From: Candidatus Heimdallarchaeota archaeon
GTDB taxonomy: Archaea; Asgardarchaeota; Heimdallarchaeia; Heimdallarchaeales; Heimdallarchaeaceae
Direction: 5' to 3'
Assembly (NCBI GenBank): GCA_016840095.1
Contig: JAEOSZ010000093.1
Location: 1 to 17,497, forward strand
DNA: 17,497 nucleotides
Positions within the stretch are counted from its first letter, which is position 1; the number at the start of each line of letters is the position of its first letter. Below are positions 1-17,497 of this stretch, piece by piece. The notes under the pieces are model-generated. The model was given only the letters and a program-made list of their open reading frames with translations, was not told the origin of the DNA and searched no databases. The translations under genes were made by a program, and so were the position numbers.

Positions 1-143
1 GCAATTTGGGGATTATTTGGTAGGTTAGTATAAGAATAGCAAACTTCACTACAGATAGAACAAGGAATCAATAATGTAGCAATTGAAATGAATATTATCA
101 AAATCCTAGTAGTTTTTTTATGCAATACTAACTCTTTAATCAT
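1..143 (-). CDS. N-terminal fragment of a secreted or membrane-anchored protein (runs off the left edge)
   Basis: Manual translation: MIKELVLHKKTTRILIIFISIATLLIPCSICSEVCYSYTNLPNNPQI..., a basic n-region followed by a hydrophobic h-region. ATG at 143, alternative TTG at 125. Not in the ORF track because it is truncated. Confidence 0.65.
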   Translation of the reverse strand, partial: MIKELVLHKKTTRILIIFISIATLLIPCSICSEVCYSYTNLPNNPQI

Positions 144-278
144 TTTACATAAAAAAACGTTTCCTACAGCGTTGTTCAATAGAATGCTAAACATTTTATC
201 ATTAATGAAAATCTGTATGAGACTTTTCTGAGACTATGAAAATATCGTTAAAAAAGCGTAATTCTTCTTGATAAGGAG

Positions 279-554
279 TTATTCTTTTCCAAAATTAATT
301 TGATCTGGACTTATGATTTTCTCAGTGAAGTAGGGAACTTTAGTAATCTCCTCTTCATGTGAAAAATCCTTTAGGAGAATCTTATAGTATTCCTTCCAAT
401 TGTGCCAACATCCAGTTTTGCAAACAAGAGTTACATGGATGATTTGAAAGAATTTGTTATTATCTAAATGATAAGATTCTTTACTCTCTAATACCGTTGC
501 TCCTTCTGTAAAACATTTAGGACAAACGTAGTTATCAGAGACGATTGACATCAA
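279..554 (-). CDS. Small zinc-ribbon protein (CPKC...CKTGCWHNW)
   Basis: Two Cys knuckles, CxxC and CxxxC, followed by H-x-W-x-E as in TFIIS-C or Ogr/Delta-type ribbons. Start is TTG 554 or ATG 551. Confidence 0.65.
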   Translation of the reverse strand: MMSIVSDNYVCPKCFTEGATVLESKESYHLDNNKFFQIIHVTLVCKTGCWHNWKEYYKILLKDFSHEEEITKVPYFTEKIISPDQINFGKE

Positions 555-677
555 AAATACATTGCCTTTTTAAAATAAAAGTATAATCACAGGGGCAACA
601 ATTTTCAAGGATATTTAGCTATCATTCCAACTCTTCATAATTCTACTTTCTTAAACTTGATTTAAAATTTGCATAAT

Positions 678-685
678 TTTATAAA
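678..685 (+). promoter_or_regulatory. Putative TATA box for the TM2 gene
   Basis: TTTATAAA about 50 nt upstream of the ATG, with a GGTGA Shine-Dalgarno just before ATG 737. Confidence 0.45.
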
Positions 686-736
686 TAAGCTCTATCGCTT
701 CTAAAGAGAGATTTACATCTCTTAAGGTGAATAAAA

Positions 737-919
737 ATGGTCAAACTATTAGATTTCCTCCTAGCATTCTTTCTAGGAGAATTTGGTATCTATAGATTCT
801 ACAAAGGATATTTTCTAACTGGTTTACTCTGGTTAGTTACTGCTGGGGTCTTTGGTATTGGATGGTTAGTAGATTGGGTATGGGTTCTTCTAGGCAAGAA
901 ACTCGAGTATCCAAAATAG
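737..919 (+). CDS. TM2 (NINE) domain small membrane protein
   Basis: LLAFFLGxFGIYRFYxG...GLLWLVTAGVFGIGWLVD is the TM2 signature. GGTGA SD upstream. Confidence 0.9.
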   Translation: MVKLLDFLLAFFLGEFGIYRFYKGYFLTGLLWLVTAGVFGIGWLVDWVWVLLGKKLEYPK

Positions 920-921
920 AT

Positions 922-951
922 GAGAGTTTTCACAACTTCTCTTTTTTTTTT
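922..951 (+). terminator. Oligo-T terminator with a weak preceding hairpin
   Basis: GAGAGTT...AACTTCTC imperfect stem followed by T10 (942-951), between convergent genes. Confidence 0.6.
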
Positions 952-955
952 GCTT

Positions 956-2719: not shown

Positions 2720-2723
2720 TTTT

Positions 2724-5700
2724 TCACTCCATTTGTGTTGGTGCATATCTTCTGAATTCTCTTCTTAAATTCCAATTCAAGCTTAAATATAGTATTATTG
2801 GAATTAGTACAAATACAATAATTATTGCATTCGTTGGATACACTATTGTATATTTTGTAAATGGTTCTTTCCCATACGCTAATAGAGAAAGTAATCTTTT
2901 CAAAACTGAGTTGCCTAGAGCTGTTCCAATTCCTAGTCCCGGTATCATTGCCGCTAGACTACTTTCTACTAAGGTGAGATTGACAATCGTGTTTGCCTTT
3001 AACCCCGTTTTCTTCATCAATTCATGTTTGATAACTCTTTTCTCAATTACCTTTGTAGCTGTAGTATAACTTGAAAAAATGAATATCACACTTGCTACTC
3101 CAAGTGAAAGAAAGATCTCCATTATAAAAATACTATAAAGAGGAGTTTTCAGAGATTCCCTCACATCTACATAGGATATTACTTTCTTCTGACTCATTTG
3201 GTAAAGCTCTTCTTTCATTTCATCTAAATACTTCAGATCATTTAAACGAACCATAAGTACGTCTGAAGTAAGGACCATGCCTGGAGTCAAAAGTTGTATT
3301 AAATCAAAACACTCGCTAGATACTATCATAAGTGTATTACTTCTAGAACTATCTCTTTCTGAGTGATAAACAGGAAATAATGAAAAAGAACTTAGAATTA
3401 AAGCTGAATGACTAACTATTTGTGAATCTATAACTCTTGTGAAAGTAACATAATCCTCTGGAATAATTCCAAATTCAGCTATTGTAGTGTTAGAAATTAT
3501 TACAGTGTCATTTTCTAACTGTTGTAATTCAGTCCAATTAAACTCCATTAAATCATTGGATGGTTCATAAATCGTATTGATGAAATCCGTTTTATTTATA
3601 ACTAATATTTGCAAATCTGCTAATGCTCCATAAAGAACAGTATAAAGACGAAGATTAGCAGAATTTTTCACTTGCGCTAGATCATTAATTTCAGCTTGAG
3701 TTAGATTTTCAACCAAATTCCAATCATTAATCATTAAATCTGAACCGTTCTGGAAAAATGCTTGATTAGTTAATACTTCTTCTTTCGTATATGGTATTGC
3801 AATAGAAGGAATTACGATAATTATTACCATCAAAAAAATAACTGTTATATTTTCAAAGTATTTTATATCTTTGCTAATTTCTGCAAAAATGTATGTAATT
3901 TTATTCTTTCTAGTGTTCCATAGAATATATCCTAGAAATCTCCAGACTATTGATAGTATTTTAATAAATATTGGTAGTCCTCCCACAATTAAGAATAATG
4001 CACCTAGCAATGTAAGCATAAGATTGACAATATATTGAGATAGATCTTGGGTATATAATGCAACTATCGTTCTGTTGTAGAAAATTTGAAATAGAATGAT
4101 TCCTGGAATTAGAACTGCTAGATCCCTGTATGGTAATTTCTTAATAAGATTAACAACCTTCTTAGGATCCTTCTCATATTTTCTTCTTGCTGAAGCAATT
4201 GAGACAATCTTAGGTACTGAAATAACTATTAAAACTCCAAAAACAATTAGTAATTTAAGAAATACATTACTTAGTAATAGTTTTGTTTTTTCATTCGAGA
4301 AACTCAAAAATCCTTCAATTCTTATCAGAGGAATTGATGTTAAAACTGCTATTCCAAAACTAATAGTTGTAGCAATAAAAGCTTCAACCATTCTAACCGA
4401 GAGAAATAGGTTTGCAATTTTCATCCTTCTAAGACCTTTTTTCCTCAGTATGTCAACTTCTTGTTCATAGCTAGTAGAAAATAGGTCTGAAGATTCTATT
4501 ACCATGAATACGGATAACAGTAACGCTGGGCAAGCAAAGAAGATAATTCTAGCCATATTTTGCATATAATAACTATTGAAATATCCCAATAACCACATCA
4601 TTTCTTCTGTAATGATAATTGAAGAAGAACTATCAAATGGAAATGTATAAGTCTTGTTGACTATTGTCCTCTGTTCATTTAACAAAGGGATTCTATCTTT
4701 TATCTGAAAATCAGTAAAATCAAAATCTATTTGATAGAAACCTTGAATCATCAGTTCAAATCTATTACTTGAAGAAAACAGTTGAAAAAGAATGTCATTT
4801 GTTGTAAGTAAATTTGCCATCCTAATTTTTCTGAAAAGATCGTAGTGTTGACCATAATAATCTGTCAAAGTCTTAAGTTCAGTTGATGTAGGAAGTGAAA
4901 AAAAACCTACCACAGTGACTTCCATACTGAAATTACCAATGACTTCTGCTGATTGTTCGATTGAGGAAATGGTTAAATTAAAAGTGTCATTAAGATTCAA
5001 ACCCAAACCATGTTCTATAGCAGTAGAAACAACAATCTCATTCGAGTTTACTGGGGCTCTACCTTCAACTAATATATTTGTGATTATTTCTGTTGTATCA
5101 TTTGGAATTGAAGTCATTTGACGGTGAAGATTTCCCGATATACCTAGCATGACTGTATAAGTGGACGTGACAGATTCAACGTATTTGCCAATCTCAAGAT
5201 TCGAATAAATTTGAACTAATTCATCTTCTGCAAGTTGATGATATAAAGGTGAAAAGTCAGAGGATGAATCTTCAAGATGTTCTATAGCTGTTGTGAGTTC
5301 AGCTGTAACTACTCTATTATCAGTTAAATCTTGAGCTTCATAAAATGAATTGATCATCGCAGGTTGTTGTGATTCTGAGATTATCAAAAATGAGTTTAAC
5401 AGAAAACCTGTTATCAACAAACTAAATATTGTAAGTATTGTTCTCTTCTTGTTTGTAAATCCTATCATTTTGAAAGTTTCAAAAGCATTTCCTATGTATC
5501 TTAATGAATTTTTGTAAACTAAAATTGCAAAAGGAAGTTTGCCATACTCCTCCTTATCTGTTAGGAATTTCATAGCTTTCGGGATTTTTCTTCTCAAGAT
5601 CAAAATGACTACAACGACAATCGCAGCTGATGCTATTATTGAAAGAGTAAAAAATACAATATTTTCGGATAACCAGTATCTAAAGACATTATATAATTCA

Positions 5701-6941
5701 GTATCTTCAAAAATCACTTCTGGTACAACTTCGAGAGAAGTTTTGGTCATAAGAACCATCAAATTCTCTTGTACATAGTCGTAACCTTTTGGGCTTTCCA
5801 CTATGCTTGAGGTAATTACAGAAACATATTGAATTACATAGTTATCATCATTTGAATCAAAGCCATATGTGTTATCTAAAGCTTGGAATTGAGTTGAAAC
5901 AGAGTTAAATTCCCACCTAAAAGTTTGGTTATTATAATATCCATTATAGAAGTAAACAAAATTACTAATTCCAAGTTTTGCTACTAGACACACTTTCGTC
6001 AGATTTTCAGTATATCTAAGAATAAAATTGTCTATGAAATAGTTTAGTTTTAGTTCTTGTGTTTCGTAATTAATATTTGAACCATTAAACGTACCATAAT
6101 AAATTGTATTGGCATGAAAGAATAAAACACTGAATATATCTTTATTTTCTAAAAATGTAACGAATCTTTCTACTTGATAGGTAATTCCTTCAAACAAGGA
6201 ATTTGTAACGTAAGTCAAAGCTTCATTCTCTAATTTTCCTATACCCAAATATCTCAATATACCTAAATAAGTAGGAGGTGAATTCCACTCTTGGAAAAGG
6301 TACCAAAGTACACCATTCGAATCCATAATTATGTCTACAACCTCTTTCTGGAAATAATTAGCTATGAAAAACTCCTCACTTGTAAATGAATTCAAACCCG
6401 AATAGTGAGTTACATTCATGAAAACATATTCAACACCATAGAGATGTGTTAGGTAGAAGTGGAATGAATTATTGATGAATTGTGATCGTGTAAAACGTAT
6501 AGCATAAAGCTCAAAATCACTATAAGAAGCAACTATTGTTGTTGTTTCGTTCTCAAGGGACCAGCTATAAAGTTTGAAATGAGTTAAACTTGAAAAAGTG
6601 TATTCTCTATAAAAAAGATAGAAACTACCATTAAATAGAAAACTATCCATGAATTCAATTTCTCTGAAATTACTTGCAAATAGAGATTGATGAGTGATAT
6701 TGTTCTCAACATAATGATGTATGATTTTTTTCCTATCAGTTTGTAGAAGTATGAATGAATGAAGAGTATTGTTCTCGTCTAAAACAGGATAGCTACTAAT
6801 TAAACCTCCATCTTCAATTTCTTCTGTATATATTAGAGGAAATTCTGAAATCTGGGCATTTACAGCGGTTCCACTAAAAACATAAAGAATCAAAACAGCA
6901 ATTATTACAATCCTCTTTTTAAGTTTCACTTCTTTCACCAT
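2724..6941 (-). CDS. Large FtsX/MacB-family (type VII ABC) permease with duplicated FtsX modules and an extra N-terminal extracellular domain
   Basis: Signal peptide, about 400-aa beta-rich domain, extra TM, then TM1 (RTILTIFSLLITG), a MacB-like ECD (GRAPVNSNEIVVS...VTVVGFF), coupling motifs EVDILRKKG and HELMKKTG, and multiple TMs. Adjacent to a LolD-like ATPase. Alternative GTG start at 6929. Confidence 0.85.
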   Translation of the reverse strand: MVKEVKLKKRIVIIAVLILYVFSGTAVNAQISEFPLIYTEEIEDGGLISSYPVLDENNTLHSFILLQTDRKKIIHHYVENNITHQSLFASNFREIEFMDSFLFNGSFYLFYREYTFSSLTHFKLYSWSLENETTTIVASYSDFELYAIRFTRSQFINNSFHFYLTHLYGVEYVFMNVTHYSGLNSFTSEEFFIANYFQKEVVDIIMDSNGVLWYLFQEWNSPPTYLGILRYLGIGKLENEALTYVTNSLFEGITYQVERFVTFLENKDIFSVLFFHANTIYYGTFNGSNINYETQELKLNYFIDNFILRYTENLTKVCLVAKLGISNFVYFYNGYYNNQTFRWEFNSVSTQFQALDNTYGFDSNDDNYVIQYVSVITSSIVESPKGYDYVQENLMVLMTKTSLEVVPEVIFEDTELYNVFRYWLSENIVFFTLSIIASAAIVVVVILILRRKIPKAMKFLTDKEEYGKLPFAILVYKNSLRYIGNAFETFKMIGFTNKKRTILTIFSLLITGFLLNSFLIISESQQPAMINSFYEAQDLTDNRVVTAELTTAIEHLEDSSSDFSPLYHQLAEDELVQIYSNLEIGKYVESVTSTYTVMLGISGNLHRQMTSIPNDTTEIITNILVEGRAPVNSNEIVVSTAIEHGLGLNLNDTFNLTISSIEQSAEVIGNFSMEVTVVGFFSLPTSTELKTLTDYYGQHYDLFRKIRMANLLTTNDILFQLFSSSNRFELMIQGFYQIDFDFTDFQIKDRIPLLNEQRTIVNKTYTFPFDSSSSIIITEEMMWLLGYFNSYYMQNMARIIFFACPALLLSVFMVIESSDLFSTSYEQEVDILRKKGLRRMKIANLFLSVRMVEAFIATTISFGIAVLTSIPLIRIEGFLSFSNEKTKLLLSNVFLKLLIVFGVLIVISVPKIVSIASARRKYEKDPKKVVNLIKKLPYRDLAVLIPGIILFQIFYNRTIVALYTQDLSQYIVNLMLTLLGALFLIVGGLPIFIKILSIVWRFLGYILWNTRKNKITYIFAEISKDIKYFENITVIFLMVIIIVIPSIAIPYTKEEVLTNQAFFQNGSDLMINDWNLVENLTQAEINDLAQVKNSANLRLYTVLYGALADLQILVINKTDFINTIYEPSNDLMEFNWTELQQLENDTVIISNTTIAEFGIIPEDYVTFTRVIDSQIVSHSALILSSFSLFPVYHSERDSSRSNTLMIVSSECFDLIQLLTPGMVLTSDVLMVRLNDLKYLDEMKEELYQMSQKKVISYVDVRESLKTPLYSIFIMEIFLSLGVASVIFIFSSYTTATKVIEKRVIKHELMKKTGLKANTIVNLTLVESSLAAMIPGLGIGTALGNSVLKRLLSLLAYGKEPFTKYTIVYPTNAIIIVFVLIPIILYLSLNWNLRREFRRYAPTQME

Positions 6942-7086
6942 GTCCCATTGTTAAAAACAAAGTTGATAGGTATTAGATAGTATTCGTATGCTATTCTAGC
7001 TCTAGTTGTCAATCTTCTTTAACTAAATTTAACTGAAGATTCTAAACATGGATATTTATATAGATTGTGGGGATTTGATAATCGAA

Positions 7087-8034
7087 TCAAGATATGCCTT
7101 TCCAAACTGCTTTTGCGATTTGAATATCTTGAACTGCTACTCCAGTTAGATCTACCACAGTAGTTTCATCATCAGATTGTCTTCGGAATTCTTTGTTAGA
7201 AATGACCTTTCCCAACTCAACCATTTTATCCTTAGTAATCATTCCATTGCTTATTGCTTTGTAGCTCTCTCCTCTTTCAAGACATTGGTCAAAACTATCA
7301 ACAACCAATCTATCAGCATTTTTAACAATTACAGAATCTAGTTCTTGTTTCTCAGGGGTGTCGGAACCAATTGCAGTAATATGAGTTCCTTTCTGAATTT
7401 GATCAGCAAAAATAAGTGGTTCTTTAGAAGGTGTACATGTTATTATCAAGTTGCAGGTTGAAGTTATTTCTTCTGGATTTGTAGTTGTTTGAACTTTGAA
7501 TCCTAGTTTTTTCATATCCTTTTCATAGATGTCTAATTCTTCTTGACTAATCCCCCAAGTGATTATATCTTTACAATCTAGAACTTTCTGAAGATAGATT
7601 GGTTGCATTCTTCCATGAACACCTGCACCAAAAATTCCTATTCTATTTACTTTACTTGGTGCCATATACTTGGCAGCTATAGCACCAGCAGTTGCAGTTC
7701 TCACATTAGTCAAATGACCATTATCAAGTAATACAGAAATTAATTCCCCTGTTTTTTGACTAAAAAGAAGCATTAAACCTCCACTAGAAGGTAGTCCTAA
7801 TTTAGGATTTTCATAAAAACCTGAAGCTACTTTAATGACATAGTAATCATCATTTTTAATGAAACCATACTTAATATGACACTCTCCTGGAGGTTCATCA
7901 AATATCATTTCTCCTACTGGTGGAACGACAACTTTTCCTTCAGAATAAGCAATGAATCCCTCTTCTATAATTTTTATAGGATCTATTGTAGCTAGAATCT
8001 CTTTTATTTCATCCAATTCAATAATAGAAGTCAT
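7087..8034 (-). CDS. Ornithine cyclodeaminase / mu-crystallin family protein
   Basis: LTNVRTATAGAIAAKY, GIFGAGVHG (NAD-binding), HITAIGSDTPEKQELD and DLTGVAVQD motifs. Confidence 0.93.
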   Translation of the reverse strand: MTSIIELDEIKEILATIDPIKIIEEGFIAYSEGKVVVPPVGEMIFDEPPGECHIKYGFIKNDDYYVIKVASGFYENPKLGLPSSGGLMLLFSQKTGELISVLLDNGHLTNVRTATAGAIAAKYMAPSKVNRIGIFGAGVHGRMQPIYLQKVLDCKDIITWGISQEELDIYEKDMKKLGFKVQTTTNPEEITSTCNLIITCTPSKEPLIFADQIQKGTHITAIGSDTPEKQELDSVIVKNADRLVVDSFDQCLERGESYKAISNGMITKDKMVELGKVISNKEFRRQSDDETTVVDLTGVAVQDIQIAKAVWKGIS

Positions 8035-8071
8035 TAAATTGTATGAAGCATTAGACTTCTTTACTTTTTCG

Positions 8072-8080
8072 AAAAAAAAA
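8072..8080 (-). terminator. Oligo-T terminator of Kelch gene A
   Basis: T9 on the minus strand shortly after the stop codon at 8094. Confidence 0.55.
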
Positions 8081-8093
8081 GGAGAGTGAAGAA

Positions 8094-9290
8094 TTAGTTT
8101 CTTCTTCTTAAAACAACAATAACAGCTAAAATACTGAAAAGAGAGATCATTGGTAACATAAAGAAGAAGTCTGTTTCAGTAGGACAGATTATCTGCGACA
8201 TCACAGTCCAGTTATTGTTGTTATAGTCATAGGTATAAATTTCATTGTAGAATATACTATATTGAGAGGAGTTTAATCCACCGAACAATATGACTAAATC
8301 ACTCTCTACATCATATGCCATTTGATGAGCTAGTCTTATAGGTTGATTAGTTGGGGTCATATCTTCCCAAGTTTGAGTATTGTAATCAAAGGCCCATGTT
8401 TCATCTTCTAAAGTGTAATCAAAAGGAATTATATGACCACCAACTAATATAGTTCTGTCACTTTCCGAATCATAAGCTAATGCATGATCCATTCTATGTG
8501 TAGGATGAATTGTAGTAGTTATATTTTCCCAAGTATTAGAATTGTAGTCATATGCCCAAGTCTCTGTAGCGTAATATTCCTCTAGTGGATTTCCATAAGG
8601 AGAAACAAAATATCCACCAACCATAATCATTCTATCACTCTCAGTGTCATAAACCATCTGTGATTCAGCTAAACCAACATCTAAACCAGTCGGAGACATA
8701 TCTGTCCACGTATCAGTATTGTAATCATATGCCCAAGTATCATTGTAGTGAATATCTATTACTCCTGGATAATAATCCGCTTCAACAATTCCTCCATGCA
8801 TTATAACCATATCAGACTCTGAGTCATATGCCATAACATGAGAGCTTCTCAAACCTGGAGATGTATTAGGATCTGCTTTCGTCCAAGTATTTGTTGAATA
8901 GTCATATATCCAAGTTTCAGCTAAAGTATATCCTTCTTTAGGGACTCCTCCAAACAGAATTAGTTTCTCTGATTCAGAATCATAAGCCATTGATAACCAG
9001 CTTGAAGCATTAGGTTTTATAGTAGGATTCAGATTTGTCCATTCATTATTGTTGTAATCGTATGCTCGAGTATCATATACTCTATTTTCAGACCCACTAG
9101 CAAAGTGCCCTCCATATACAATTATCAAATCATTAACTGAATCATACGCCATTGAATGTCCAACTTTTGCTAGTGGATAAGGTGTTGGAGCGCAATCAGC
9201 TGAAATACTAATTGTTACGTAAAGCAAGTTAACTATGATAAGTACTGCTGAAAAAATCAGATATTTCTTTTTGTGTTTATTTTTTTTCAT
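8094..9290 (-). CDS. Secreted, C-terminally anchored Kelch-repeat beta-propeller (paralog A)
   Basis: Signal peptide, six repeats of H-x-MAYDSESD-xx-hhGG...TW-x-YDY-x-x-NTW, and a C-terminal TM ending RRRN. ATG 9290 follows an AGGTGA SD. Confidence 0.9.
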   Translation of the reverse strand: MKKNKHKKKYLIFSAVLIIVNLLYVTISISADCAPTPYPLAKVGHSMAYDSVNDLIIVYGGHFASGSENRVYDTRAYDYNNNEWTNLNPTIKPNASSWLSMAYDSESEKLILFGGVPKEGYTLAETWIYDYSTNTWTKADPNTSPGLRSSHVMAYDSESDMVIMHGGIVEADYYPGVIDIHYNDTWAYDYNTDTWTDMSPTGLDVGLAESQMVYDTESDRMIMVGGYFVSPYGNPLEEYYATETWAYDYNSNTWENITTTIHPTHRMDHALAYDSESDRTILVGGHIIPFDYTLEDETWAFDYNTQTWEDMTPTNQPIRLAHQMAYDVESDLVILFGGLNSSQYSIFYNEIYTYDYNNNNWTVMSQIICPTETDFFFMLPMISLFSILAVIVVLRRRN

Positions 9291-9295
9291 TGTTA

Positions 9296-9398
9296 TCACC
9301 TGTTAAAGCTCAAAACTTTAACAAAACTATATTCACTTCAGATTACATGAAATATCGCAGAAATTAAAAATAGAAAAGTTTCACAATTGTTGTTTAAC
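9296..9398. repeat. 103-bp upstream element, copy 1 (promoter plus 5' leader of Kelch A)
   Basis: Ungapped match to 10675-10777 with 3 mismatches (9365, 9388, 9394). Positions 9296-9364 are identical. Confidence 0.95.
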
Positions 9399-9458
9399 AT
9401 TTCGTATTTGCAAAATAAGAAAAAAGAAAAGAGTAATTTAAATTTCAGATTAATTATT

Positions 9459-10670
9459 TCAATTACGTTTTCTTCTAATTACAATAACTGCTAAGATACT
9501 GAATAGAGAAAGCATTGGTAACACAACGATGAAGCTTGTGGGTGTTGGTGTTGGGCAGAGCACTTTAGACATAGCTGTCCAATTGTTGCTATTATAGTCA
9601 TAAGTATAAATCAAATCATAAGGTACTGATGCCTGTGTTCTACTTATTCCACCAAATAGAATAACCAAATCACTTTCGGAATCATAAGCTATTTGATGTC
9701 CATACCTTTCTGGTTGAGATGATGGATTCATGTTCTCCCATGTTTGTGTATTGTAATCAAAAATCCACGTTTCAGATACTATTGGAGAGTTAGCTAGCAG
9801 TTGCCATCCACCAATTAGAATAGTTCTATCACTCTCTGAATCGTAAGCTAATGCATGATCAATTCTATAGTCTGGATGAATAGTTGTAGTTACATTTTCC
9901 CAAGTATTAGAGTTATAGTCGTATACCCATGTTTCTTGGGAGTAATGTTCTGGACCTGGAGCATCATATGGTTGAGTATAGTACCCACCAAACATGATCA
10001 TCCTATCACTCTCTGAATCATAAACCATCTGTGCTTCAGCTAGACCAACATCTAAACCACTTGGATTCATATTCGTCCAGGTATCAGAATTGAAATCATA
10101 TGCCCAAGTATCGTTATAGTGGATATATTCTCCTGTTGGATTATATTCATTGTGCGCAATACCTCCATGCAAAATTACTACATCACTCTCCGAGTCATAT
10201 GCCATTACATGGTTGTGTCTAATTGCAGGAGTAGCATTAGGATTTGCTTTTGTCCATGTTCTAGTTACATAATCAAATATCCAAGTATCATCAGAATACG
10301 TACCATCTGGTGCAACTCCACTAAACTGAATCAATTTTTCTGATTCAGAGTCATATGCTATTGCAGTCCAACTGGAACCATTTGGTTGTCCTATAGGATT
10401 CAAATTAGTCCAATTGTTATTATTACAATCATAAGCTAAAACATCATAAGTAGAATGATCTTTGTAATCCCCAACAAAGCTTGTTGTACCTCCATATACA
10501 ATGATCACATCATTTAGTGTATCATAAATCATTGAATGACCAGCTTTTCCTGAAGGATATGGATTAGGAGCACATTGAGCTGAAACGTTAATAGATGCAG
10601 AGCAGAGTATAGTTATAAATAGAAAAGATATAAAGAGAATAACTTTGTTTTTGTGTTTTTTATTTTTCAT
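9459..10670 (-). CDS. Secreted, C-terminally anchored Kelch-repeat beta-propeller (paralog B)
   Basis: Same six-blade repeat, signal peptide, Pro/Thr linker and TM ending RRKRN. AGGTGA SD. Confidence 0.9.
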   Translation of the reverse strand: MKNKKHKNKVILFISFLFITILCSASINVSAQCAPNPYPSGKAGHSMIYDTLNDVIIVYGGTTSFVGDYKDHSTYDVLAYDCNNNNWTNLNPIGQPNGSSWTAIAYDSESEKLIQFSGVAPDGTYSDDTWIFDYVTRTWTKANPNATPAIRHNHVMAYDSESDVVILHGGIAHNEYNPTGEYIHYNDTWAYDFNSDTWTNMNPSGLDVGLAEAQMVYDSESDRMIMFGGYYTQPYDAPGPEHYSQETWVYDYNSNTWENVTTTIHPDYRIDHALAYDSESDRTILIGGWQLLANSPIVSETWIFDYNTQTWENMNPSSQPERYGHQIAYDSESDLVILFGGISRTQASVPYDLIYTYDYNSNNWTAMSKVLCPTPTPTSFIVVLPMLSLFSILAVIVIRRKRN

Positions 10671-10674
10671 TTTT

Positions 10675-10777
10675 TCACCTGTTAAAGCTCAAAACTTTAA
10701 CAAAACTATATTCACTTCAGATTACATGAAATATCGCAGAAATAAAAAATAGAAAAGTTTCACAATGGTTGTATAAC
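10675..10777. repeat. 103-bp upstream element, copy 2 (promoter plus 5' leader of Kelch B)
   Basis: Direct repeat of 9296-9398 at an offset of 1379 bp. Confidence 0.95.
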
Positions 10778-10794
10778 TCTTTTCGATATAGAAA

Positions 10795-12558
10795 TTAAAC
10801 TGGAGGTGCAGCTAGAGGGTAAAGATCTTCTGAACCAGCTGAACCTGAGATAGTGTAAGGACCAGAGATCCAGTCAGACCAATGATTCCCTTCTGAAGAA
10901 AGTATGTCATACCAAATATTATTAGTTCCTGAGTCAAATCCTTGACTTGTTCCCACGAGATTATTATTAATGAAACTATTATGATGAACCTTATTTTGAT
11001 ATCCTGCATAGATTACTACACCATACTGTGTATTGTCTGAGATAGAATTATATGTAATAGTAGTAAAATTTGTGAATCCAAACGCAATTCTACCAAACAA
11101 TATGATACCTAAACTGTTTTGAGAAACTGTATTATTCACTATGATGCAAGTCTCTGAATCATATAATGAGACCCCATACTGGTTATTCATCATAGTATTA
11201 TTATTGACTGTTATGTCTGTACATTCTGTAAGATCGATTCCTGTCATGATGTTGTTGCTGTAATTGTTTCTTTGAATGTCGATTTGAGTACTCCATGCTA
11301 TACTTGATCCAATGTTCCCATTGTAGTTACACTGATTTTCTATATGAGAATTGTTGAAGGAGTAATCATTTGATAAACCAACACGAGAATTGTAATTGAA
11401 AGTGTTGTTTTTACAAAGTGAGTTATTACTATAAAGAAACTCGATTCCCCCAATTTCATTGAAATTGCATATGTTGTTTTCAATAGTTGTATTGTCACTA
11501 TAAAAGATGTTAATTCCACATTCAGCAGAATTAATAATATTATTATCTAGTATATACAGATTTTCACAATAGTAAAAAGCTAGTCCTGTAGAATCAGTTA
11601 TATCTAAACCTGAAATTGTCAAGTTTGAGCTCTTTATAAAGATATATTGATCATGAAGATCAGTGTTTATCACTTGATTATGATAGTCAACATAGTAACC
11701 TAAAGGTTTACCATTTACGATATTTGATTCATCTACTATAAATGATTCATAATATTCTAGAGGAATAACATTCACTCCAAAAGTATATCTATTATAAGTA
11801 TCAAAGACTATACCAGAACCAATAATCTCATTATTCCTAATAACTGCGTTTGCAGAATCCCAAATATATAAACCTGTTAAAATATTTTGGTTTAAATTGT
11901 TTTGTTCAATTGTACAATTTGGGGAATATGATAAAGATATTCCATTTCCATCATTTTCTGAAACTTGATTCCTTAAAATCTGAGAATCTGGACAGTTGGC
12001 AATTAATATTCCATTACCAAAATTTGCATTCTCTGAAAATTCATTTTTACCTTCAACAGAGTTGATAGTATTATTTATCAATTTCATCTCATTTGAGTGA
12101 TGAATTGATATACCATTTTGACCATCTATGTTTTCACATGTATTATTGATTATATATGCTCCATCTGAGTTGGAAACAAAGATGCCAATTTTGCCGTTCT
12201 TAACAATATTATTAGAGATATGAGCTGTATTTTCAGCAGTATTCTGAATATAAATTCCTGCATATGGTGCTTCGATATCACACCCTTCTATAATAAAATG
12301 CTTCGTAGTATCAGCAATGAAAATACCTCTAGCTATGGAGGTGGAAATCTCATAATTAGTAATTAGATAAGGTTCAGTTTCAGTTCCCTTCCCTTCGAAC
12401 TTATAATTTCTAAAATCACTATCATTCCAAATAACGATGTTATCGAATTCTGTTAATCTTGGTGGAGAGATTACTGTAAAGTAAACAGCTAGAAACGTGG
12501 ATAATAATAAAACAACTGAAGAAGAAATTGCAATAATTATCTTGATTTTTCTATTCAT
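10795..12558 (-). CDS. Membrane-anchored right-handed parallel beta-helix (PbH1/NosD-like) surface protein
   Basis: N-terminal signal anchor, many GI-x-L-xx-S-xN-xx-I-xx-N-xxx-N repeats, GKGTETEPYLI at the N-terminus and a GNHWSDW...DLYPL C-terminal cap. Confidence 0.88.
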   Translation of the reverse strand: MNRKIKIIIAISSSVVLLLSTFLAVYFTVISPPRLTEFDNIVIWNDSDFRNYKFEGKGTETEPYLITNYEISTSIARGIFIADTTKHFIIEGCDIEAPYAGIYIQNTAENTAHISNNIVKNGKIGIFVSNSDGAYIINNTCENIDGQNGISIHHSNEMKLINNTINSVEGKNEFSENANFGNGILIANCPDSQILRNQVSENDGNGISLSYSPNCTIEQNNLNQNILTGLYIWDSANAVIRNNEIIGSGIVFDTYNRYTFGVNVIPLEYYESFIVDESNIVNGKPLGYYVDYHNQVINTDLHDQYIFIKSSNLTISGLDITDSTGLAFYYCENLYILDNNIINSAECGINIFYSDNTTIENNICNFNEIGGIEFLYSNNSLCKNNTFNYNSRVGLSNDYSFNNSHIENQCNYNGNIGSSIAWSTQIDIQRNNYSNNIMTGIDLTECTDITVNNNTMMNNQYGVSLYDSETCIIVNNTVSQNSLGIILFGRIAFGFTNFTTITYNSISDNTQYGVVIYAGYQNKVHHNSFINNNLVGTSQGFDSGTNNIWYDILSSEGNHWSDWISGPYTISGSAGSEDLYPLAAPPV

Positions 12559-12636
12559 TTACCTTACCTACCTTACACTCAATTTGAACAATTATGAGAA
12601 ATTGTATTTGTTTATTTTGCAACTGTTCTACAACAT

Positions 12637-13665
12637 TCATTCTATCACCTTTCTTCCTCTATCAGTTATGAAGACCTTATACTCTCTACCCCATCTTTCT
12701 TTAGATATCAATTCATTGTTTTCTAAAGGAGTCAAATTTCTAGATATCTTTGATTTCGTGAAACCTGTCCTATTTATCAACTCTTTCTGAGTTATTTTAC
12801 CTTCTGATTCAATAATCAGATTAAGAATTAGCTTCTGATCTTCTGTCAGAAATACTTTTCCTACTTCCTTCATTACCTTTGTTTCTTTTTTCTTCATCCA
12901 CCAATATACACTAAATGCTCCAAGAGCAATGCCAAATAATGGACCTACAATATATAACCATAAAGGATTGCTGGGATCACCAGGTTCATCAAAATATACT
13001 TCAATGAAGAAGTAAGTTTCTGGATTAACATTGATGAAAGACCAATAAATAAAAATTCTCCCTCCTGAAGGATCATAGGTACCATTAATAGGGAAGAAGG
13101 ATTGTTGAATTATTTCATCTTCATGTAACCAACTATTTGTTGGTAAACCTAATTCAACATTATATTCATGTGTAAAATATGTCAATACTGGGAAATATTG
13201 AAAATTATAATAATATGGAGGTTTGTGACCACTAGGATCAAGACTTATATCTAGATAATAATCAACAATAAATGTAAAACTTTGATTTGTGTTTATAACT
13301 TGGTCAAAATAAATGGTAATTGATTTTGTGATTTCATGAGGAACTGAAGTAATAGGTGAGTATCCTTCATCAGTAACTAATATATTTCTGAAATCTAAAT
13401 TCAAGCTTGGCCAAAATTCCATCTCGGAAATCGAATCATTTTCTAAATTCTTTATTTCCAGCTCTTCAACAACATGGATTTCATCAATGCTTCTGAAATC
13501 AATTCTAACCTTCTGATAGTTTACTTCTATAACCTCTTGATTTATCTCAGCATAAACTGAATCTTGGTTTGAAGAAATCGAAATATTGCTAGATTTACCT
13601 ATAGATATCAATAGCATTACTATTACTATTAAAAACTTAAAGGATATTCTAGCTATTTTGTTCAA
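12637..13665 (-). CDS. Membrane-tethered winged-HTH regulator: signal peptide, about 200-aa ectodomain, TM, C-terminal MarR-like wHTH (COG2512-like)
   Basis: TM LWLYIVGPLFGIALGAFSVYWW followed by KKK. wHTH: LTEDQKLILNLI...GKITQKEL...GFTKSKISRNLTPLENNELISKERWGREYKV. TTG start. Confidence 0.85.
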   Translation of the reverse strand: MNKIARISFKFLIVIVMLLISIGKSSNISISSNQDSVYAEINQEVIEVNYQKVRIDFRSIDEIHVVEELEIKNLENDSISEMEFWPSLNLDFRNILVTDEGYSPITSVPHEITKSITIYFDQVINTNQSFTFIVDYYLDISLDPSGHKPPYYYNFQYFPVLTYFTHEYNVELGLPTNSWLHEDEIIQQSFFPINGTYDPSGGRIFIYWSFINVNPETYFFIEVYFDEPGDPSNPLWLYIVGPLFGIALGAFSVYWWMKKKETKVMKEVGKVFLTEDQKLILNLIIESEGKITQKELINRTGFTKSKISRNLTPLENNELISKERWGREYKVFITDRGRKVIE

Positions 13666-13732
13666 TAGTAACCATTATCGAGGTTATAATTAAAAAGAAT
13701 TTCCCAAAAAAATAGAAAATAAAGAAGTTTAA

Positions 13733-14935
13733 CTACCTTCTTTTAAATTTCATAACTAAAACTACTGCAAAAGCAGAAATCAGACTTAGTATGTAAAAAT
13801 TTGTCTTTGATGTTGGAGGTGTGCAAATTTGATCAATCATTGTCCAGGTATCTGTATTAGAGTCATAGGTCCATAAATCACTAAGATAAGTACTAACAGA
13901 TGTAGCAACAAATCCTCCATATAGAATTATCAAATCACTTTCAGAATCATAAACCATTTGATGTGAAGATCTCTGTAATCCTGTTGGAGGAATCATTTCT
14001 GTCCATGTTTTTGTATTATAGTCGTACGTCCAGGTTTCATCTTGCATGTCTTCATTGTTCAAATGAGTATGTCCTCCAAACATAACTATCAAATCACTCT
14101 CAGAATCATAAGCCATTGCATGGTCCAATCTAGGATCTGGATTAACAAGAATGTCTGTAGCATTTTCCCAAGTATTAGTGTTGTAGTCATAAGCCCAAGT
14201 TTCCATCTTATACACTTGACCTGTTGGATCCATGAAGGGAACATCATATGGACTGTGATAACCTCCAAACATGATTATTCTGTCACTTTCTGAATCATAT
14301 GCCATTTGTGCTGAACTCATCCCTAGTGGGGAAGCAACTGGTGTAACATTTGTCCATGTATCTGTGTTTAGATCATATGCCCATGTGTCATTGTAGGTTA
14401 TACGGTCCCCATAAGGGTTGTAATCAGGTGTTAAAGCACCTCCATGCATGATCATAACATCTGATTCTGAATCATAAGCCATACAATGTCCAACTCTTAG
14501 AAGAGGATTAGCATTGGGTGCTTGAGGAGTCCAGGTATTTGCTGTATAATTATACACACTTGTTTCGTCCGAAGAGAAATCTTCAGCATGATTTCCTCCA
14601 AAACAAACAATTTGATCAGATTCTGAATCATATTCTAATTGTGTTCCTACAGAACCGTAAGGTGTTTCTGATGGAGACATTTTTGTCCAAGCATTGTTAT
14701 TATAGTCATAAACCCAAGTTTCAAAAGACCAATCAACATAAGCAGTAGTTGTTGTTCCCCCATATACAATTATTACATCATTAGTAGAATCATATGCCAT
14801 AGCATGAGCTACTCTACCTTGGGGACAAGCTGCATAAACTTGATTTGATATACTAACAGTAAAGAGTAGTAAAGAAGTGACAATTAAAACTGAAAAGAGA
14901 ATTCTTTTTTTGTTATTTTTCTTTTGTTTATTCAT
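13733..14935 (-). CDS. Secreted, C-terminally anchored Kelch-repeat beta-propeller (paralog C)
   Basis: Same repeat architecture, TM ending KFKRR. ATG 14935 follows an AGGTGA SD. Confidence 0.9.
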   Translation of the reverse strand: MNKQKKNNKKRILFSVLIVTSLLLFTVSISNQVYAACPQGRVAHAMAYDSTNDVIIVYGGTTTTAYVDWSFETWVYDYNNNAWTKMSPSETPYGSVGTQLEYDSESDQIVCFGGNHAEDFSSDETSVYNYTANTWTPQAPNANPLLRVGHCMAYDSESDVMIMHGGALTPDYNPYGDRITYNDTWAYDLNTDTWTNVTPVASPLGMSSAQMAYDSESDRIIMFGGYHSPYDVPFMDPTGQVYKMETWAYDYNTNTWENATDILVNPDPRLDHAMAYDSESDLIVMFGGHTHLNNEDMQDETWTYDYNTKTWTEMIPPTGLQRSSHQMVYDSESDLIILYGGFVATSVSTYLSDLWTYDSNTDTWTMIDQICTPPTSKTNFYILSLISAFAVVLVMKFKRR

Positions 14936-15012
14936 TTTATTCACCTAAAAGCTTTAAAGCTTCAAGAGATAGTAAGGTTCTCAAAATATTTGAAATGTTG
15001 CTCAAAGTATTG

Positions 15013-15027
15013 GTGAAACAGTTTCAC
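15013..15027. promoter_or_regulatory. Perfect inverted repeat GTGAAAC-A-GTTTCAC, candidate operator
   Basis: Perfect 7-1-7 dyad upstream of Kelch C. Its GTTTCACAA half recurs at 9378-9386 and 10757-10765 at nearly the same distance from the SD. Confidence 0.6.
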
Positions 15028-15191
15028 AACATTTAGACAAACTTGTTTGGGACATTCAAATTGCTTCAAAGCTTAGTAAATATGACATTACACATTATGT
15101 TATATAAACTATTTGGGGTTTCTTCAGATTGTTCTCTGAAAACAATTCTGTAACCTTATGAAACAATTCTTTTCAGATGGAATTTTTCTTG

Positions 15192-15207
15192 TTGCAAAAT
15201 TTATAAA
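15192..15207 (+). promoter_or_regulatory. BRE/TATA promoter of the aminotransferase (probably leaderless)
   Basis: GCAAAA followed by TTTATAAA (15200-15207), ending about 25 nt before ATG 15233. No SD is visible. Confidence 0.55.
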
Positions 15208-15232
15208 GAAGAAAATTACCTATATCTTGTTT

Positions 15233-16351
15233 ATGAAAATCGAAACATTTGAACTCGAGAGAAGACAATCCCTTTGGGAGAACTTTGTAGATTATAATCT
15301 TACTGAAAGTGGAATTCATCCTTTTACTTTAGAAGAACTCCTTAATTTAGATCAACTTGAAGAATTGTTCAACATTCGCATTGGATATGGACAAACAAAT
15401 GGTTCTATTGGTTTACGTGATGCTATAAGTAACCTTTATCCAACTTCTTCAATAGACAATATTTTAGTAACTAATGGTTCAGCAGAAGCTAATTTCATTT
15501 CTATTTGGAGTATTTTGGAAAAAGATGAAGACTATGTAGTTATGTTACCCAATTATATGCAAACTTGGGGTTTAGCTCAATCTTTTGGAACAAATGTTAG
15601 ACCTTTTTATCTTAAAGAAGAACTAAACTGGCAACCTGATCTTGATGAGTTAAAAGATGCTATTACAAGCAATACAAAAATGATATCTGTCTGCAATCCA
15701 AATAATCCTACAGGTTCTATTTTGAATGGTGAAGCTATGAATTGCATTATTGATCTTGCTCAGGATGTTGATGCATTTATTCATAGTGATGAGGTCTATC
15801 GAGGAGCAGAGCTTGATGGAAAGGAGATAGAGACATTTTATGGCAAATATGATAAGGTTATAGCAGTTGCAGGATTATCAAAAGCTTATAGTCTTCCAGG
15901 ATTAAGAATGGGCTGGATTGTGGCACCTGAAGACATTGCAGCTAAAGCTTGGGCATATCATGATTATACAACTATTTCTCCATGTGTTCTTAGTCAACAA
16001 ATTGCTGAATGGGCTCTTCAAAACGATAAACGAGAGATGATACTTACTAGAAATCGCAAGATTTTAAATGAAAATCTTGAATTCTTTCTAGATTGGGTTG
16101 AGACAAGAAAACATCTATTCAGTTTTATTCCTCAGAAAGCAGGAGCTATGTCTTTTGTTCGATACAATCTTGATATCAACTCTACTGAGTTAACTGAACA
16201 ATTAAGAAAGGAGAAAAGCTTGTTAATAGTTGCTGGAGATTGTTTTGGAATGGATGGATACCTTAGAATAGGAATAGGTTCAGAAAAAGATTATCTCCTT
16301 AAAGGTTTAGAAAGATTTGCTGAACTATTAGAGGAACTCATAGACTCCTAA
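15233..16351 (+). CDS. PLP-dependent aminotransferase, class I/II
   Basis: VTNGSAEA, CNPNNPTG, SDEVY, GLSKAYSLPGLRMGW (PLP lysine) and LRIG motifs. Start moved to ATG 15233 (MKIETFELER) based on TATA spacing. Confidence 0.93.
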   Translation: MKIETFELERRQSLWENFVDYNLTESGIHPFTLEELLNLDQLEELFNIRIGYGQTNGSIGLRDAISNLYPTSSIDNILVTNGSAEANFISIWSILEKDEDYVVMLPNYMQTWGLAQSFGTNVRPFYLKEELNWQPDLDELKDAITSNTKMISVCNPNNPTGSILNGEAMNCIIDLAQDVDAFIHSDEVYRGAELDGKEIETFYGKYDKVIAVAGLSKAYSLPGLRMGWIVAPEDIAAKAWAYHDYTTISPCVLSQQIAEWALQNDKREMILTRNRKILNENLEFFLDWVETRKHLFSFIPQKAGAMSFVRYNLDINSTELTEQLRKEKSLLIVAGDCFGMDGYLRIGIGSEKDYLLKGLERFAELLEELIDS

Positions 16352-16639
16352 TTCATCTTCTTCAAAAGCGTCTTTCATTATTTCTATTGTTTCATCTTTG
16401 TAAATGAATTTAATATTTAGCTCTCTTCTAGGTAACCATTCTAGTTCCCAATGTATCATCTCATCATCTGTTTTAAATCCAAGTTCATCTAGAACTTCTT
16501 GCTTGGGAATAGAATAACCATAGATGTTGATTAAGTTTCTAATTTTTTCGTACAGCTTTTTCGCTTCTTCCCTCTCTTTTCTGGAGATTTCTTGTAATGC
16601 TTTCCATGCACTTTGAGAAGATTTGTCATTTTCGTTCAA
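16328..16639 (-). CDS. Hypothetical protein, possibly a small winged-helix/PCI-like domain
   Basis: Charged N-terminal helix followed by a helix-helix-helix-beta-hairpin pattern. TTG start. 3' end overlaps the aminotransferase by 24 bp. Confidence 0.6.
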   Translation of the reverse strand: MNENDKSSQSAWKALQEISRKEREEAKKLYEKIRNLINIYGYSIPKQEVLDELGFKTDDEMIHWELEWLPRRELNIKFIYKDETIEIMKDAFEEDELGVYEFL

Positions 16640-16737
16640 ATGATTCCACTCTCAGACAAGTTTTGTGTAATTTCTGTCTGTTTATCAATAAAAGTAATGG
16701 AATATAAATATTTGTAGCACTTTTAAAAGAGAGAAAA

Positions 16738-17118
16738 TTACTCTTCAACTAAACTCTCAACAAATACTATCATATTTCCATCAGGATCAAAAGAAATTAC
16801 CATTTTAACCATACCTGGAAGCTCTTGAATCTCTAAAGTATTCACACCTTTTCCTTCTAAGTATTTCTTAGTATTTTCTGCACTCTTAACACCGAAATTG
16901 ACTGTAGTAGAACCGTGAACAATATCTCCCTCTTTTTTTAGATTCAATCCTAGAGTTAGACCTTTTGTTACGTCTATTTCGAGCCAACCAAAATCTACTG
17001 CTTTATCCCATCCCCTTTTGAAACCTAATATTTCTGTGTAGAATTTTTCAGCTACTTCAAGATCTTTAACATCTAATGATATAACAATAGTGTGAGGTTC
17101 TGTATATTCTATACTCAT
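16738..17118 (-). CDS. VOC / glyoxalase-bleomycin resistance family protein
   Basis: ISLDVKDLEVAEKFYTEILGF...FDPDGNMIVFVE. ATG 17118 follows an AGGTGAT SD. Confidence 0.9.
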   Translation of the reverse strand: MSIEYTEPHTIVISLDVKDLEVAEKFYTEILGFKRGWDKAVDFGWLEIDVTKGLTLGLNLKKEGDIVHGSTTVNFGVKSAENTKKYLEGKGVNTLEIQELPGMVKMVISFDPDGNMIVFVESLVEE

Positions 17119-17177
17119 ATTATCACCTATACTGAACAAAATATTTGAATATATAAAATACTTTCATCTTACAAAAA

Positions 17178-17497
17178 TTACAATTCATTATAGAACTCAA
17201 GCATTCTAAAGAAATCAATAGCATCTTCTTCAAACTTACTAGGGATACCACCTGTAAGTTCTAAACCTTCCATATTTTCAAATCTGTTAATTAGTCTTAA
17301 TAGAAAACTTCCAAGTTTCTTTAAAGAATCATCCTTCACTTTTTCTGCTGTATCTAAAGGTGTATTGTATATTCCAGGTTCTGTAGCACCCTTAATCATG
17401 AAAAGGACACTTGGAATACCTTCATGAATAAAAGCCATGCTACTCCCTCTGTTTGTTATACTATTTACAGTTAAAGTGGGATAGTTATTTGACAAAC
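17178..17497 (-). CDS. C-terminal fragment of an M28 peptidase-like protein (degenerate motifs, runs off the right edge)
   Basis: F-xx-EGIPSV...Y-x-TPLDTAEKV resembles the M28 pattern SDH-xx-F-xxx-GIP...YHT-xx-DT. The frame is open to the window edge. Confidence 0.7.
   Translation of the reverse strand, partial: LSNNYPTLTVNSITNRGSSMAFIHEGIPSVLFMIKGATEPGIYNTPLDTAEKVKDDSLKKLGSFLLRLINRFENMEGLELTGGIPSKFEEDAIDFFRMLEFYNEL

Follow-up and report, generated by a model that had tools for sequence, protein, structure and literature searches.

The minus-strand gene Reg, located on contig JAEOSZ010000093.1 of a Heimdallarchaeaceae metagenome-assembled genome (MAG; 3.44 Mb, 33% GC), probably encodes a transmembrane one-component transcription regulator, which would activate the adjacent surface-protein genes from the membrane through pairs of the half-site GTTKCA; a probability of roughly 0.6 is given to this reading. 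The stretch analysed here, positions 1-17497 (the window), is the entire 17.5-kb contig. The genes on the minus strand of the window follow in the order KelchC, Reg, BetaH, KelchB, KelchA, a gene of the ornithine cyclodeaminase family (OCD), an FtsX-like permease and an ABC ATPase. An earlier reading of this DNA from its letters (the sequence-only reading) had described the first five genes as a co-oriented set of exported or anchored proteins built around a membrane-integrated one-component-type regulator with reversed topology, and each part of this description was recovered: gene content, order and shared strand from the open reading frames and Pfam, export or anchoring of all five products from inspection and structural modelling, and the regulator from Pfam, the model and fold matches.

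The AlphaFold2 (AF2) model of Reg has a mean predicted local distance difference test (pLDDT) score of 82.6, with values of about 90 within the ectodomain and the winged helix-turn-helix (wHTH) domain, and it shows a type I topology, with an N-terminal helix, a predicted extracellular beta-sandwich, one transmembrane (TM) segment, a short basic linker and a predicted cytoplasmic winged helix. The DNA-binding domain is predicted from a match to DUF7343, a MarR_2 match above its cut-off and a fold match to MarR and BpsR (Z 13.4, root-mean-square deviation 1.1-1.3 Å over 70 residues), and the corresponding profile match in the PDB is MarR (8xt8, E 5e-4). The predicted TM region lies within the same polypeptide and comprises the helix at residues 235-269 together with the N-terminal hydrophobic helix at residues 3-20 (AF2, inspection). 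The MarR-family wHTH core is present with its recognition helix and wing, as judged from profile and fold, and the flanking dimerisation helices of the MarR type are absent, the core of about 70 residues standing alone after the TM segment (alignment, AF2). In an alignment of 19 Reg homologs the wHTH is the most conserved part and the ectodomain is far more divergent. The recognition helix K304-S-K-I-S-R-N-L311 (KSKISRNL) is essentially invariant among these homologs, paralogs included, and this invariant reading head agrees with the single half-site that is common to the paralog loci. One face of the TM helix, consisting of G245, G249, V253 and M257 (i, i+4, i+8, i+12), is also invariant. With a DUF7343-type profile, 544 clusters that share the full-length architecture were found at E <= 1e-10; of ten clusters looked up, four carry names (Heimdallarchaeota, Asgardarchaeia, Nitrososphaerota), and a literature search on DUF7343, COG2512 and Heimdall-CTERM found nothing relevant.

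The sequence-only reading had placed a related motif upstream of the four non-regulator genes, and pairs of GTTKCA/TGMAAC half-sites are indeed found there and not at Reg, followed 15-16 nt onward by a similar non-consensus TATA-like box (ATTTCTCATAAT, ATATTTCATGTAAT, ACATTTCAAATAT). The site of KelchB is TTGTGAAAC (TACAAC-N5-TGAAAC), of which the site of KelchA is a degenerate copy, and boxes related to the TATA-like box of BetaH occur in relatives (TCTCATAWAT / TTTCATATAT). Within 130 nt before start codons, exact half-sites occur in the window only at KelchC, BetaH, KelchB and KelchA, and none was found over this distance upstream of Reg, OCD, the FtsX-like permease or the aminotransferase gene that is divergent from KelchC. 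The strict box CGATATTTCATGTA is present in this genome at KelchA and KelchB only and is therefore not a general promoter element. Reg itself is preceded by a canonical element, GGGAAATTCTTTTTAAT, which is conserved among the paralogs and lacks half-sites; as its TATA falls within the zone, 26-40 nt ahead of start codons, in which TATA words are most frequent across the genome, the Reg transcript is probably leaderless or short-leadered. Oligo-T stretches follow the stop codons of KelchC and KelchB, and none follows that of Reg. Taken alone, the window gives a modest statistic of about 1e-3, counting KelchA and KelchB once, because 10% of genes genome-wide have at least one half-site upstream, and the strength of the case rests on the relatives.

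At most loci two or three GTTKCA boxes, with 10-11 bp spacing or inverted, lie right after the Reg stop codon. At least one half-site is found in the first 45 nt past the stop at 19 of 31 loci, compared with 5.3% of 647 co-directional control spacers (Fisher 2e-15), and at least two are found at 35% of the Reg loci and in 0.3% of the controls. In an unbiased 6-mer test, which used other genomes only and in which near-identical spacers were collapsed, GTTGCA ranked top (9/21 against 6/647, p 2e-11) and GTTTCA sixth (7/21 against 28/647, p 4e-5). The spacers of the paralogs are otherwise unalignable, and unrelated gene families follow them. The Kelch promoters of relatives carry two or three phased GTTKCA boxes and, after 13-17 nt, a CGATATTTCATATAT-like box, and the promoter is retained in the ortholog of genome G187 even though the protein is only about 43% identical. 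The half-sites are found in both orientations, so that an element of double-stranded DNA is favoured over an RNA signal. The neighbour of the Reg paralog on contig C33 (35513-38068), which encodes a 755-residue protein with a signal peptide and a C-terminal anchor, has three phased upstream boxes (GTTTCAcataGTTGCAttttgGTTTTA) and seems, from its sequence, to be an additional local target. On contig C82, the Reg paralog has GTTTCAcaaagGTTTCA ahead of its own gene (C82:4119-4192), a site that Reg of the window lacks, and some paralogs may thus be autoregulated.

Over the whole genome, paired half-sites precede 23 of 3155 genes, 9-10 of which are at Reg loci, and at least two half-sites lie upstream of 13 genes; neither scan showed enrichment for membrane or exported proteins outside the Reg loci. 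A broad genome-wide surface regulon was rejected on this basis, the sites clustering at Reg loci with no enrichment of exported proteins elsewhere, and the motif-linked surface regulon of the sequence-only reading is accordingly narrowed: the motif is enriched at paralogous and orthologous Reg loci and not upstream of surface genes at large. Neither GTGAAAC nor TTGTGAAAC, taken as exact words, shows genome-wide enrichment between genes (53 intergenic and 364 coding occurrences), and hence the 9-mer first proposed as the motif is unusable alone as a regulon marker.

Among 200 other genomes sampled from the phylum, Reg homologs were found in 20 of the 21 that belong to the same family and in all three of a second family, at one to five copies per genome, and were rare in the rest. 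The present genome has five paralogs, which are 35-40% identical, and a BetaH homolog follows on the same strand in 5/5 cases; its Kelch genes are confined to this contig. When 40 distinct Reg loci from Heimdallarchaeaceae (at most 90% identical) were pooled, 34 had a gene for a surface or exported protein downstream, with its start at a median of 90 nt (interquartile range 85-97) past the Reg stop. These genes encode BetaH at 18 loci, a protein of about 350 residues with a signal peptide, a C-terminal anchor and no Pfam family at 13, a Kelch protein at two and another TM protein at one. On the Reg tree, loci with the same kind of downstream gene group together (0/500 shuffles as low), and all BetaH-linked Reg copies fall within one clade with a support of 98/100, from which it follows that Reg and its neighbour were duplicated as a pair. 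Linkage of Reg to Kelch and NosD-type genes, which the sequence-only reading had singled out for a synteny check, is retained in relatives, Reg-Kelch linkage being seen in at least six other genomes (G187, G145, G127, G209, G160 and G151). Of the three refuting conditions named in the sequence-only reading, those open to computation did not hold. The arrangements include KelchC-Reg-BetaH-Kelch (G187), Kelch-Reg-BetaH (G145) and Kelch-Reg-Kelch (G127), and G151 has at least four Kelch genes. The Kelch-centred grouping proposed earlier is thus found elsewhere, but the conserved core is the Reg-BetaH pair and not Reg together with Kelch. The ABC system further downstream, which had been offered as a possible part of the regulon, drops out: no half-sites lie upstream of it, OCD intervenes and its synteny is not constant in relatives.

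Comparison of the window (1-17497) with six related loci (L034, L062, L037, L040, L059 and L055) shows the Kelch/Reg/BetaH cassette as a hypervariable island, flanked by the aminotransferase gene on one side and by OCD, an open reading frame (ORF) of 91 residues and the FtsX-ABC genes on the other. The aminotransferase is 68-85% identical between species, and Reg at the island position 32-67%. Gene number, gene order and the type of Reg paralog vary between species of one genus, with island flanks that are 68-85% identical, and the island evolves fast, in the manner of surface repertoires. The 91-residue ORF, which begins with a CPNC zinc-ribbon-like motif and has no Pfam family, travels with the island in relatives, where it lies between Kelch and Reg (G127), after Kelch (G187), after OCD (G145) or after BetaH (G157).

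In the proposed mechanism, Reg would dimerise through the TM face G245/G249/V253/M257 and, held in the membrane, would bind pairs of GTTKCA, either inverted or in tandem with a 10-11 bp spacing, that precede a TATA-like box by about 15 nt. Its targets would be the next gene, BetaH, the upstream neighbour KelchC and, farther along, KelchB and KelchA. Activation of these promoters is the most likely outcome, because the sites lie upstream of the position of the TFB-recognition element (BRE) and TATA, as for ArnR, and because the TATA-like boxes match the TATA of the genome poorly. Control would be local and would need no kinase; local control is probable since recognition helix and half-site are common to the paralogs and each paralog has its sites directly beside its own gene. 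Tethering to the membrane, together with proximity, may insulate the five circuits of this genome from one another. Through its divergent ectodomain each paralog would receive an input of its own, which could be a ligand from outside or the condition of the cognate surface protein. BetaH may in addition serve as a partner of the ToxS/TcpH type, given that it is anchored N-terminally, that its position is constant and that no T-rich terminator follows Reg.

Several points weigh against this mechanism. The promoter elements are assigned only by position and similarity, and the boxes could be recognised by another, soluble protein. The half-site, an AT-rich hexamer, is short, and about 10% of all upstream regions contain one by chance; the lack of intergenic enrichment given above applies to the exact 7-mer GTGAAAC. 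The loci compared are related, so that the Fisher p-values overstate independence. In the genome itself, the paralog loci on contigs C6 and C91 lack clear GTTKCA pairs, and KelchA and KelchB have one good and one degenerate half-site, in the orientation opposite to that of BetaH. Finally, an identical recognition helix in five paralogs leaves specificity unexplained unless their action is restricted to cis, a restriction that is itself deduced.

The best fold matches of the Reg ectodomain are yeast Ost1 and human RPN1 (Z 16.6-17.9, root-mean-square deviation 2.3 Å over about 176 residues), ahead of the N-domains of M1 aminopeptidases and LTA4H (Z about 14), and the aligned region of Ost1/RPN1 is the luminal domain directly before their TM segment. 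Pfam Ribophorin_I (PF04597) matched none of the 19 Reg homologs at E <= 5. The same genome encodes a separate bona fide Ribophorin_I protein (PF04597 E 4.4e-16, 697 residues, coiled-coil tail); hhalign of Reg with this Ost1 homolog aligned the equivalent region at a probability of 8-13% and E 0.002-0.004, which is not significant, and an alignment of 17 Asgard Ost1 sequences gave values in the same range. Leads from the ESM Atlas were low-scoring (0.79-0.83) and comprised a eukaryotic Ribophorin_I cluster and DUF7343 clusters of Thor-, Heimdall- and Aenigmatarchaeota. The ectodomain as modelled thus has an Ost1-like fold, and common descent with Ost1 is not established by sequence. Reg resembles Ost1/ribophorin I in having this fold right before a single TM segment with a cytosolic tail, but it carries only one of the luminal beta-sandwich domains, and its tail is a wHTH domain in place of a helical ribosome-binding tail. 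In eukaryotes, the ribophorin-I/Ost1-type domain presents nascent glycoproteins to the oligosaccharyltransferase. An unlikely extension of the regulator reading is that the domain serves Reg as an extracellular sensor and that each paralog, acting strictly in cis, keeps track of the export or glycosylation of the neighbouring gene's surface product and tunes that gene from the membrane; specificity would then come from tethering beside its own gene, as the paralogs share one recognition helix and half-site. If true, a fold counted as an Asgard 'eukaryotic signature' would be tied to gene regulation, and a way of insulating paralogous circuits by position would have been described. Asgard homologs of Ost1 have been reported (PMC10307638).

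The same fold match could also be taken to mean that Reg is a ribophorin-I-like accessory of secretion or N-glycosylation for the neighbouring glycoproteins, with the wHTH docking to the ribosome, RNA or a protein and another factor reading the boxes. Ost1/RPN1, the top structural match, has this domain in the same place relative to the TM segment and likewise has a cytosolic tail after one TM, and the neighbours of Reg in the window are secreted and rich in N-x-S/T sequons; yet the presence of a separate bona fide Ribophorin_I protein, the failure of PF04597 in 0/19 homologs and of hhalign, and a canonical MarR-type wHTH whose invariant recognition helix is matched by a conserved DNA element beside the gene make an accessory role highly improbable. 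Even less credit is given to the idea that the shared motif is merely promoter sequence inherited through gene duplication and unrelated to Reg. KelchA and KelchB do form a tandem duplication in which the upstream DNA is nearly the same, and the Kelch promoters of relatives are alignable. However, the promoter-leaders of KelchA and KelchB (95-98% identical) are far better conserved than their coding regions (50-90% in 60-nt windows, mostly 55-85%), the half-sites recur after Reg paralogs that are 30-45% identical, in unalignable spacers before BetaH, Kelch and C-anchored genes alike, and their orientation varies while the spacing to the TATA-like box is kept.

Two further explanations retain Reg as a regulator and alter its mode of action. 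Reg and BetaH could form a two-protein sensor like ToxR/ToxS or TcpP/TcpH, in which BetaH as co-sensor would bind the ectodomain of Reg and control its activity or stability, with the Kelch and other C-anchored proteins as the true outputs. This is a tentative possibility, compatible with direct activation as an additional layer: the pair is the conserved core (5/5 paralogs of this genome, 18/40 loci) and was duplicated as a unit (clade 98/100), the missing oligo-T terminator past the Reg stop would permit basal co-transcription, and toxRS and tcpPH are known to share the gene order and the partner topology. The partner would have to be exchangeable, however, as 13/40 loci have a different downstream protein and two have Kelch, and BetaH has a promoter-like box and an operator candidate of its own. 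It is distinctly doubtful, by comparison, that the wHTH is freed by regulated intramembrane proteolysis (as in SREBP, ATF6 or RsgI-type proteins), or that tethered Reg represses until a signal arrives. Gly/Pro helix-breakers in the TM segment (IVGPLFGIALGA) are typical of substrates of intramembrane proteases, and release would spare the DNA from having to reach the membrane, but the same Gly positions (i, i+4, i+8, i+12) fit helix-helix packing equally well, no protease gene is linked within the window (Pfam), and the operator lies upstream of the TATA-like box, the usual place for an archaeal activator (compare the ArnR boxes), and not over or after it.

Transmembrane transcription regulators (TTRs) of the ToxR, TcpP and CadC class (Demey et al. 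2023) are reported to be widespread in archaea, and Asgard archaea are not mentioned in the census (PMC10269533). By sequence, Reg combines in one polypeptide the two features of a TTR, a predicted DNA-binding domain and a TM region, and action from the membrane is predicted, with the conserved operator-like element adjoining the gene as indirect support. As in ToxR, TcpP and CadC, an extracytoplasmic sensor, a single TM segment and a cytoplasmic winged helix are joined in one chain, with the gene beside its targets, and the gene for a downstream N-anchored periplasmic partner in toxRS and tcpPH is comparable to BetaH after Reg. Unlike Reg, with its C-terminal MarR-like wHTH (type I), these proteins have an N-terminal winged helix of the OmpR/PhoB type (type II), and no Trans_reg_C match was found in Reg (Pfam); they are also bacterial, whereas Reg is archaeal, with a TBP/TFB promoter and an Ost1-like beta-sandwich sensor. 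ArnR and ArnR1 of Sulfolobus acidocaldarius, the only characterised archaeal membrane-bound transcription factors, activate surface structures through paired boxes at -43 to -84, upstream of BRE/TATA (PMC6396743). They resemble Reg as membrane-bound one-component regulators whose paralogs share DNA-binding domains and whose paired boxes lie upstream. ArnR has an N-terminal HTH, a cytoplasmic HAMP/sensor region and two C-terminal TM segments, and senses inside the cell or at the membrane, whereas in Reg the domain order is reversed and the sensor is predicted to be extracellular; no sequence relationship between Reg and ArnR is seen among the Pfam and NCBIfam matches. A further comparison is with the DUF7343/COG2512-type membrane-associated wHTH proteins of archaea, which have the same C-terminal wHTH family as Reg (PF24034) and within which the Heimdallarchaeaceae proteins form, on sequence evidence, a subfamily defined by the invariant KSKISRNL helix, pairing with surface genes and GTTKCA boxes. 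The statement of the sequence-only reading that no characterised system of this type exists in Asgard archaea thus holds for the family and not for the class of regulator: transmembrane regulators are already known in archaea, and the Reg family is an uncharacterised variant with an architecture unlike those of ToxR/CadC and ArnR.

To our knowledge, signal transduction in Asgard archaea is almost unknown, and only one pair of archaeal membrane-bound transcription factors, ArnR/ArnR1, has been studied. For the Reg family, a concrete candidate operator is at hand in the GTTKCA pairs, the target promoters and the sensor fold are defined, and all of this can be tested in vitro without culture. A fast-evolving island of surface proteins between housekeeping genes could report surface remodelling, for example upon contact with a partner or in avoidance of viruses, and an Ost1-like sensor would put to a second use a fold that has until now been considered solely as a precursor of eukaryotic glycosylation machinery.

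The features of the window and one side locus are collected in the table. Close homologs are named as Candidatus Heimdallarchaeota or Heimdallarchaeaceae, including Heimdallarchaeum endolithica, H. aukensis and AB_125. The gene divergent from KelchC encodes a class I/II aminotransferase, and the two share a spacer of 213 nt.

Table. Coordinates of Reg, its neighbours and the candidate promoter elements (window positions unless a contig is given)
Feature	Position	Strand	Description
KelchC	13733-14935	-	Six-blade Kelch, Pfam PF24681 E 4.6e-67; C-terminal TM and KFKRR anchor
Reg	12637-13665	-	DUF7343 (PF24034) E 3.6e-13 and MarR_2 at residues 274-332 (Pfam)
Reg signal peptide/TM1	13606-13659	-	N-terminal hydrophobic helix, residues 3-20 (AF2)
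Reg ectodomain	12988-13533	-	Ost1/ribophorin-I-like beta-sandwich, residues 45-226 (AF2, fold search)
Reg TM helix	12895-12963	-	Residues 235-257 and beyond; AF2 helix 235-269, core LWLYIVGPLFGIALGAFSVYWWM, then KKKETK
Reg wHTH	12640-12852	-	MarR-like, DUF7343 type; residues 272-342 of 342 (C-terminus)
Reg promoter	13684-13705	-	GGGAAATTCTTTTTAATTATAA; BRE/TATA type, ends about 18 nt before TTG, TATA element about 25-30 nt before
BetaH	10795-12558	-	Pfam Beta_helix E 1e-39, NosD E 2e-38; TIGR03804 repeats
KelchB	9459-10670	-	Exported Kelch propeller; C-terminal TM and RRKRN anchor
KelchA	8094-9290	-	Exported Kelch propeller; C-terminal TM and RRRN anchor
OCD	7087-8034	-	Ornithine cyclodeaminase gene, between KelchA and the ABC genes
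FtsX-like permease	2724-6941	-	1405 residues
91-residue ORF	279-554	-	CPNC zinc-ribbon-like start
KelchC operator candidate	15013-15027	.	Perfect inverted repeat GTGAAAC-T-GTTTCAC, 16 nt upstream of TATA-like box; in the 213-nt spacer
KelchC TATA-like box	14983-15000	-	CAACATTTCAAATATTTT; same placement relative to half-sites as in the other three genes
KelchC leader dyad	14941-14963		AAGCTT-TA-AAGCTT
BetaH operator candidate	12618-12634	-	Tandem GTTGTA-gaaca-GTTGCA; begins 5 nt past the Reg stop codon
BetaH TATA-like box	12589-12604	-	CAATTTCTCATAATTG; 15 nt past the operator candidate, about 45 nt before ATG
KelchB promoter and leader	10679-10777	-	Half-site pair 10757-10773, box CGATATTTCATGTAAT 10721-10736, dyad 10681-10701, Shine-Dalgarno sequence
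KelchA promoter and leader	9300-9398	-	Half-site 9378-9394, box 9342-9357, dyad 9302-9322
Exosortase/archaeosortase side locus	C14:28435-29196 and C14:32425-33168 (L054)		PF09721

Export and anchoring were called by sequence inspection and from the AF2 model. In each of the three Kelch proteins a basic N-terminus precedes a hydrophobic core and an AxA-type site, and the chain ends in a TM segment followed by an R/K cluster (inspection); BetaH has a single N-terminal TM anchor and NosD-type right-handed beta-helix repeats (inspection, Pfam, TIGR03804). The GTG starts of KelchA and KelchC in the ORF list were rejected, as the GTG sits within the Shine-Dalgarno sequence AGGTGA; the starts are ATG 9290 and ATG 14935, each behind AGGTGA. 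One Cys lies right after the predicted signal cleavage site in each Kelch protein (SAQC, SADC, YAAC) and a second right before the C-terminal anchor (LCPT, ICPT, ICTP), and judging from these positions the pair may form a disulfide that closes the propeller.

Each of the three Kelch leaders has a short dyad directly 5' of the Shine-Dalgarno sequence; for KelchA and KelchB it reads GTTAAAG-N7-CTTTAAC, and that of KelchC is listed in the table. Relatives have a dyad in the same place with other sequences (AAGCT/AGCTT, GAGCA/TGCTC), which looks like compensatory change. The leader RNA folds are modest, at -8.8, -8.8 and -7.2 kcal/mol for KelchA, KelchB and KelchC (z -2.2, -2.3 and -1.1), and Rfam gave no match in the window at E <= 1, so that the Kelch leader is not a known RNA family; the dyad could form a hairpin in the mRNA or serve as another site for a protein. 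In the permease, the FtsX match is weak (E 0.0065, residues 801-918) and a long N-terminal extension has no family match; the adjacent ATPase has two nucleotide-binding domains of the LolD/MacB type.

No NCBIfam model matched the Reg ectodomain or a C-terminal sorting signal. At a distance of about 3 kb from its Ost1/ribophorin I homolog, the genome has a gene of the exosortase/archaeosortase family (PF09721, 32.9 bits summed). By a crude pattern, about 10% of the predicted proteins of the genome (318) end in a TM segment and an R/K cluster as the Kelch proteins do, and 214 of these 318 also have an N-terminal hydrophobic segment. Together these observations suggest a C-terminal sorting signal of the sortase type.

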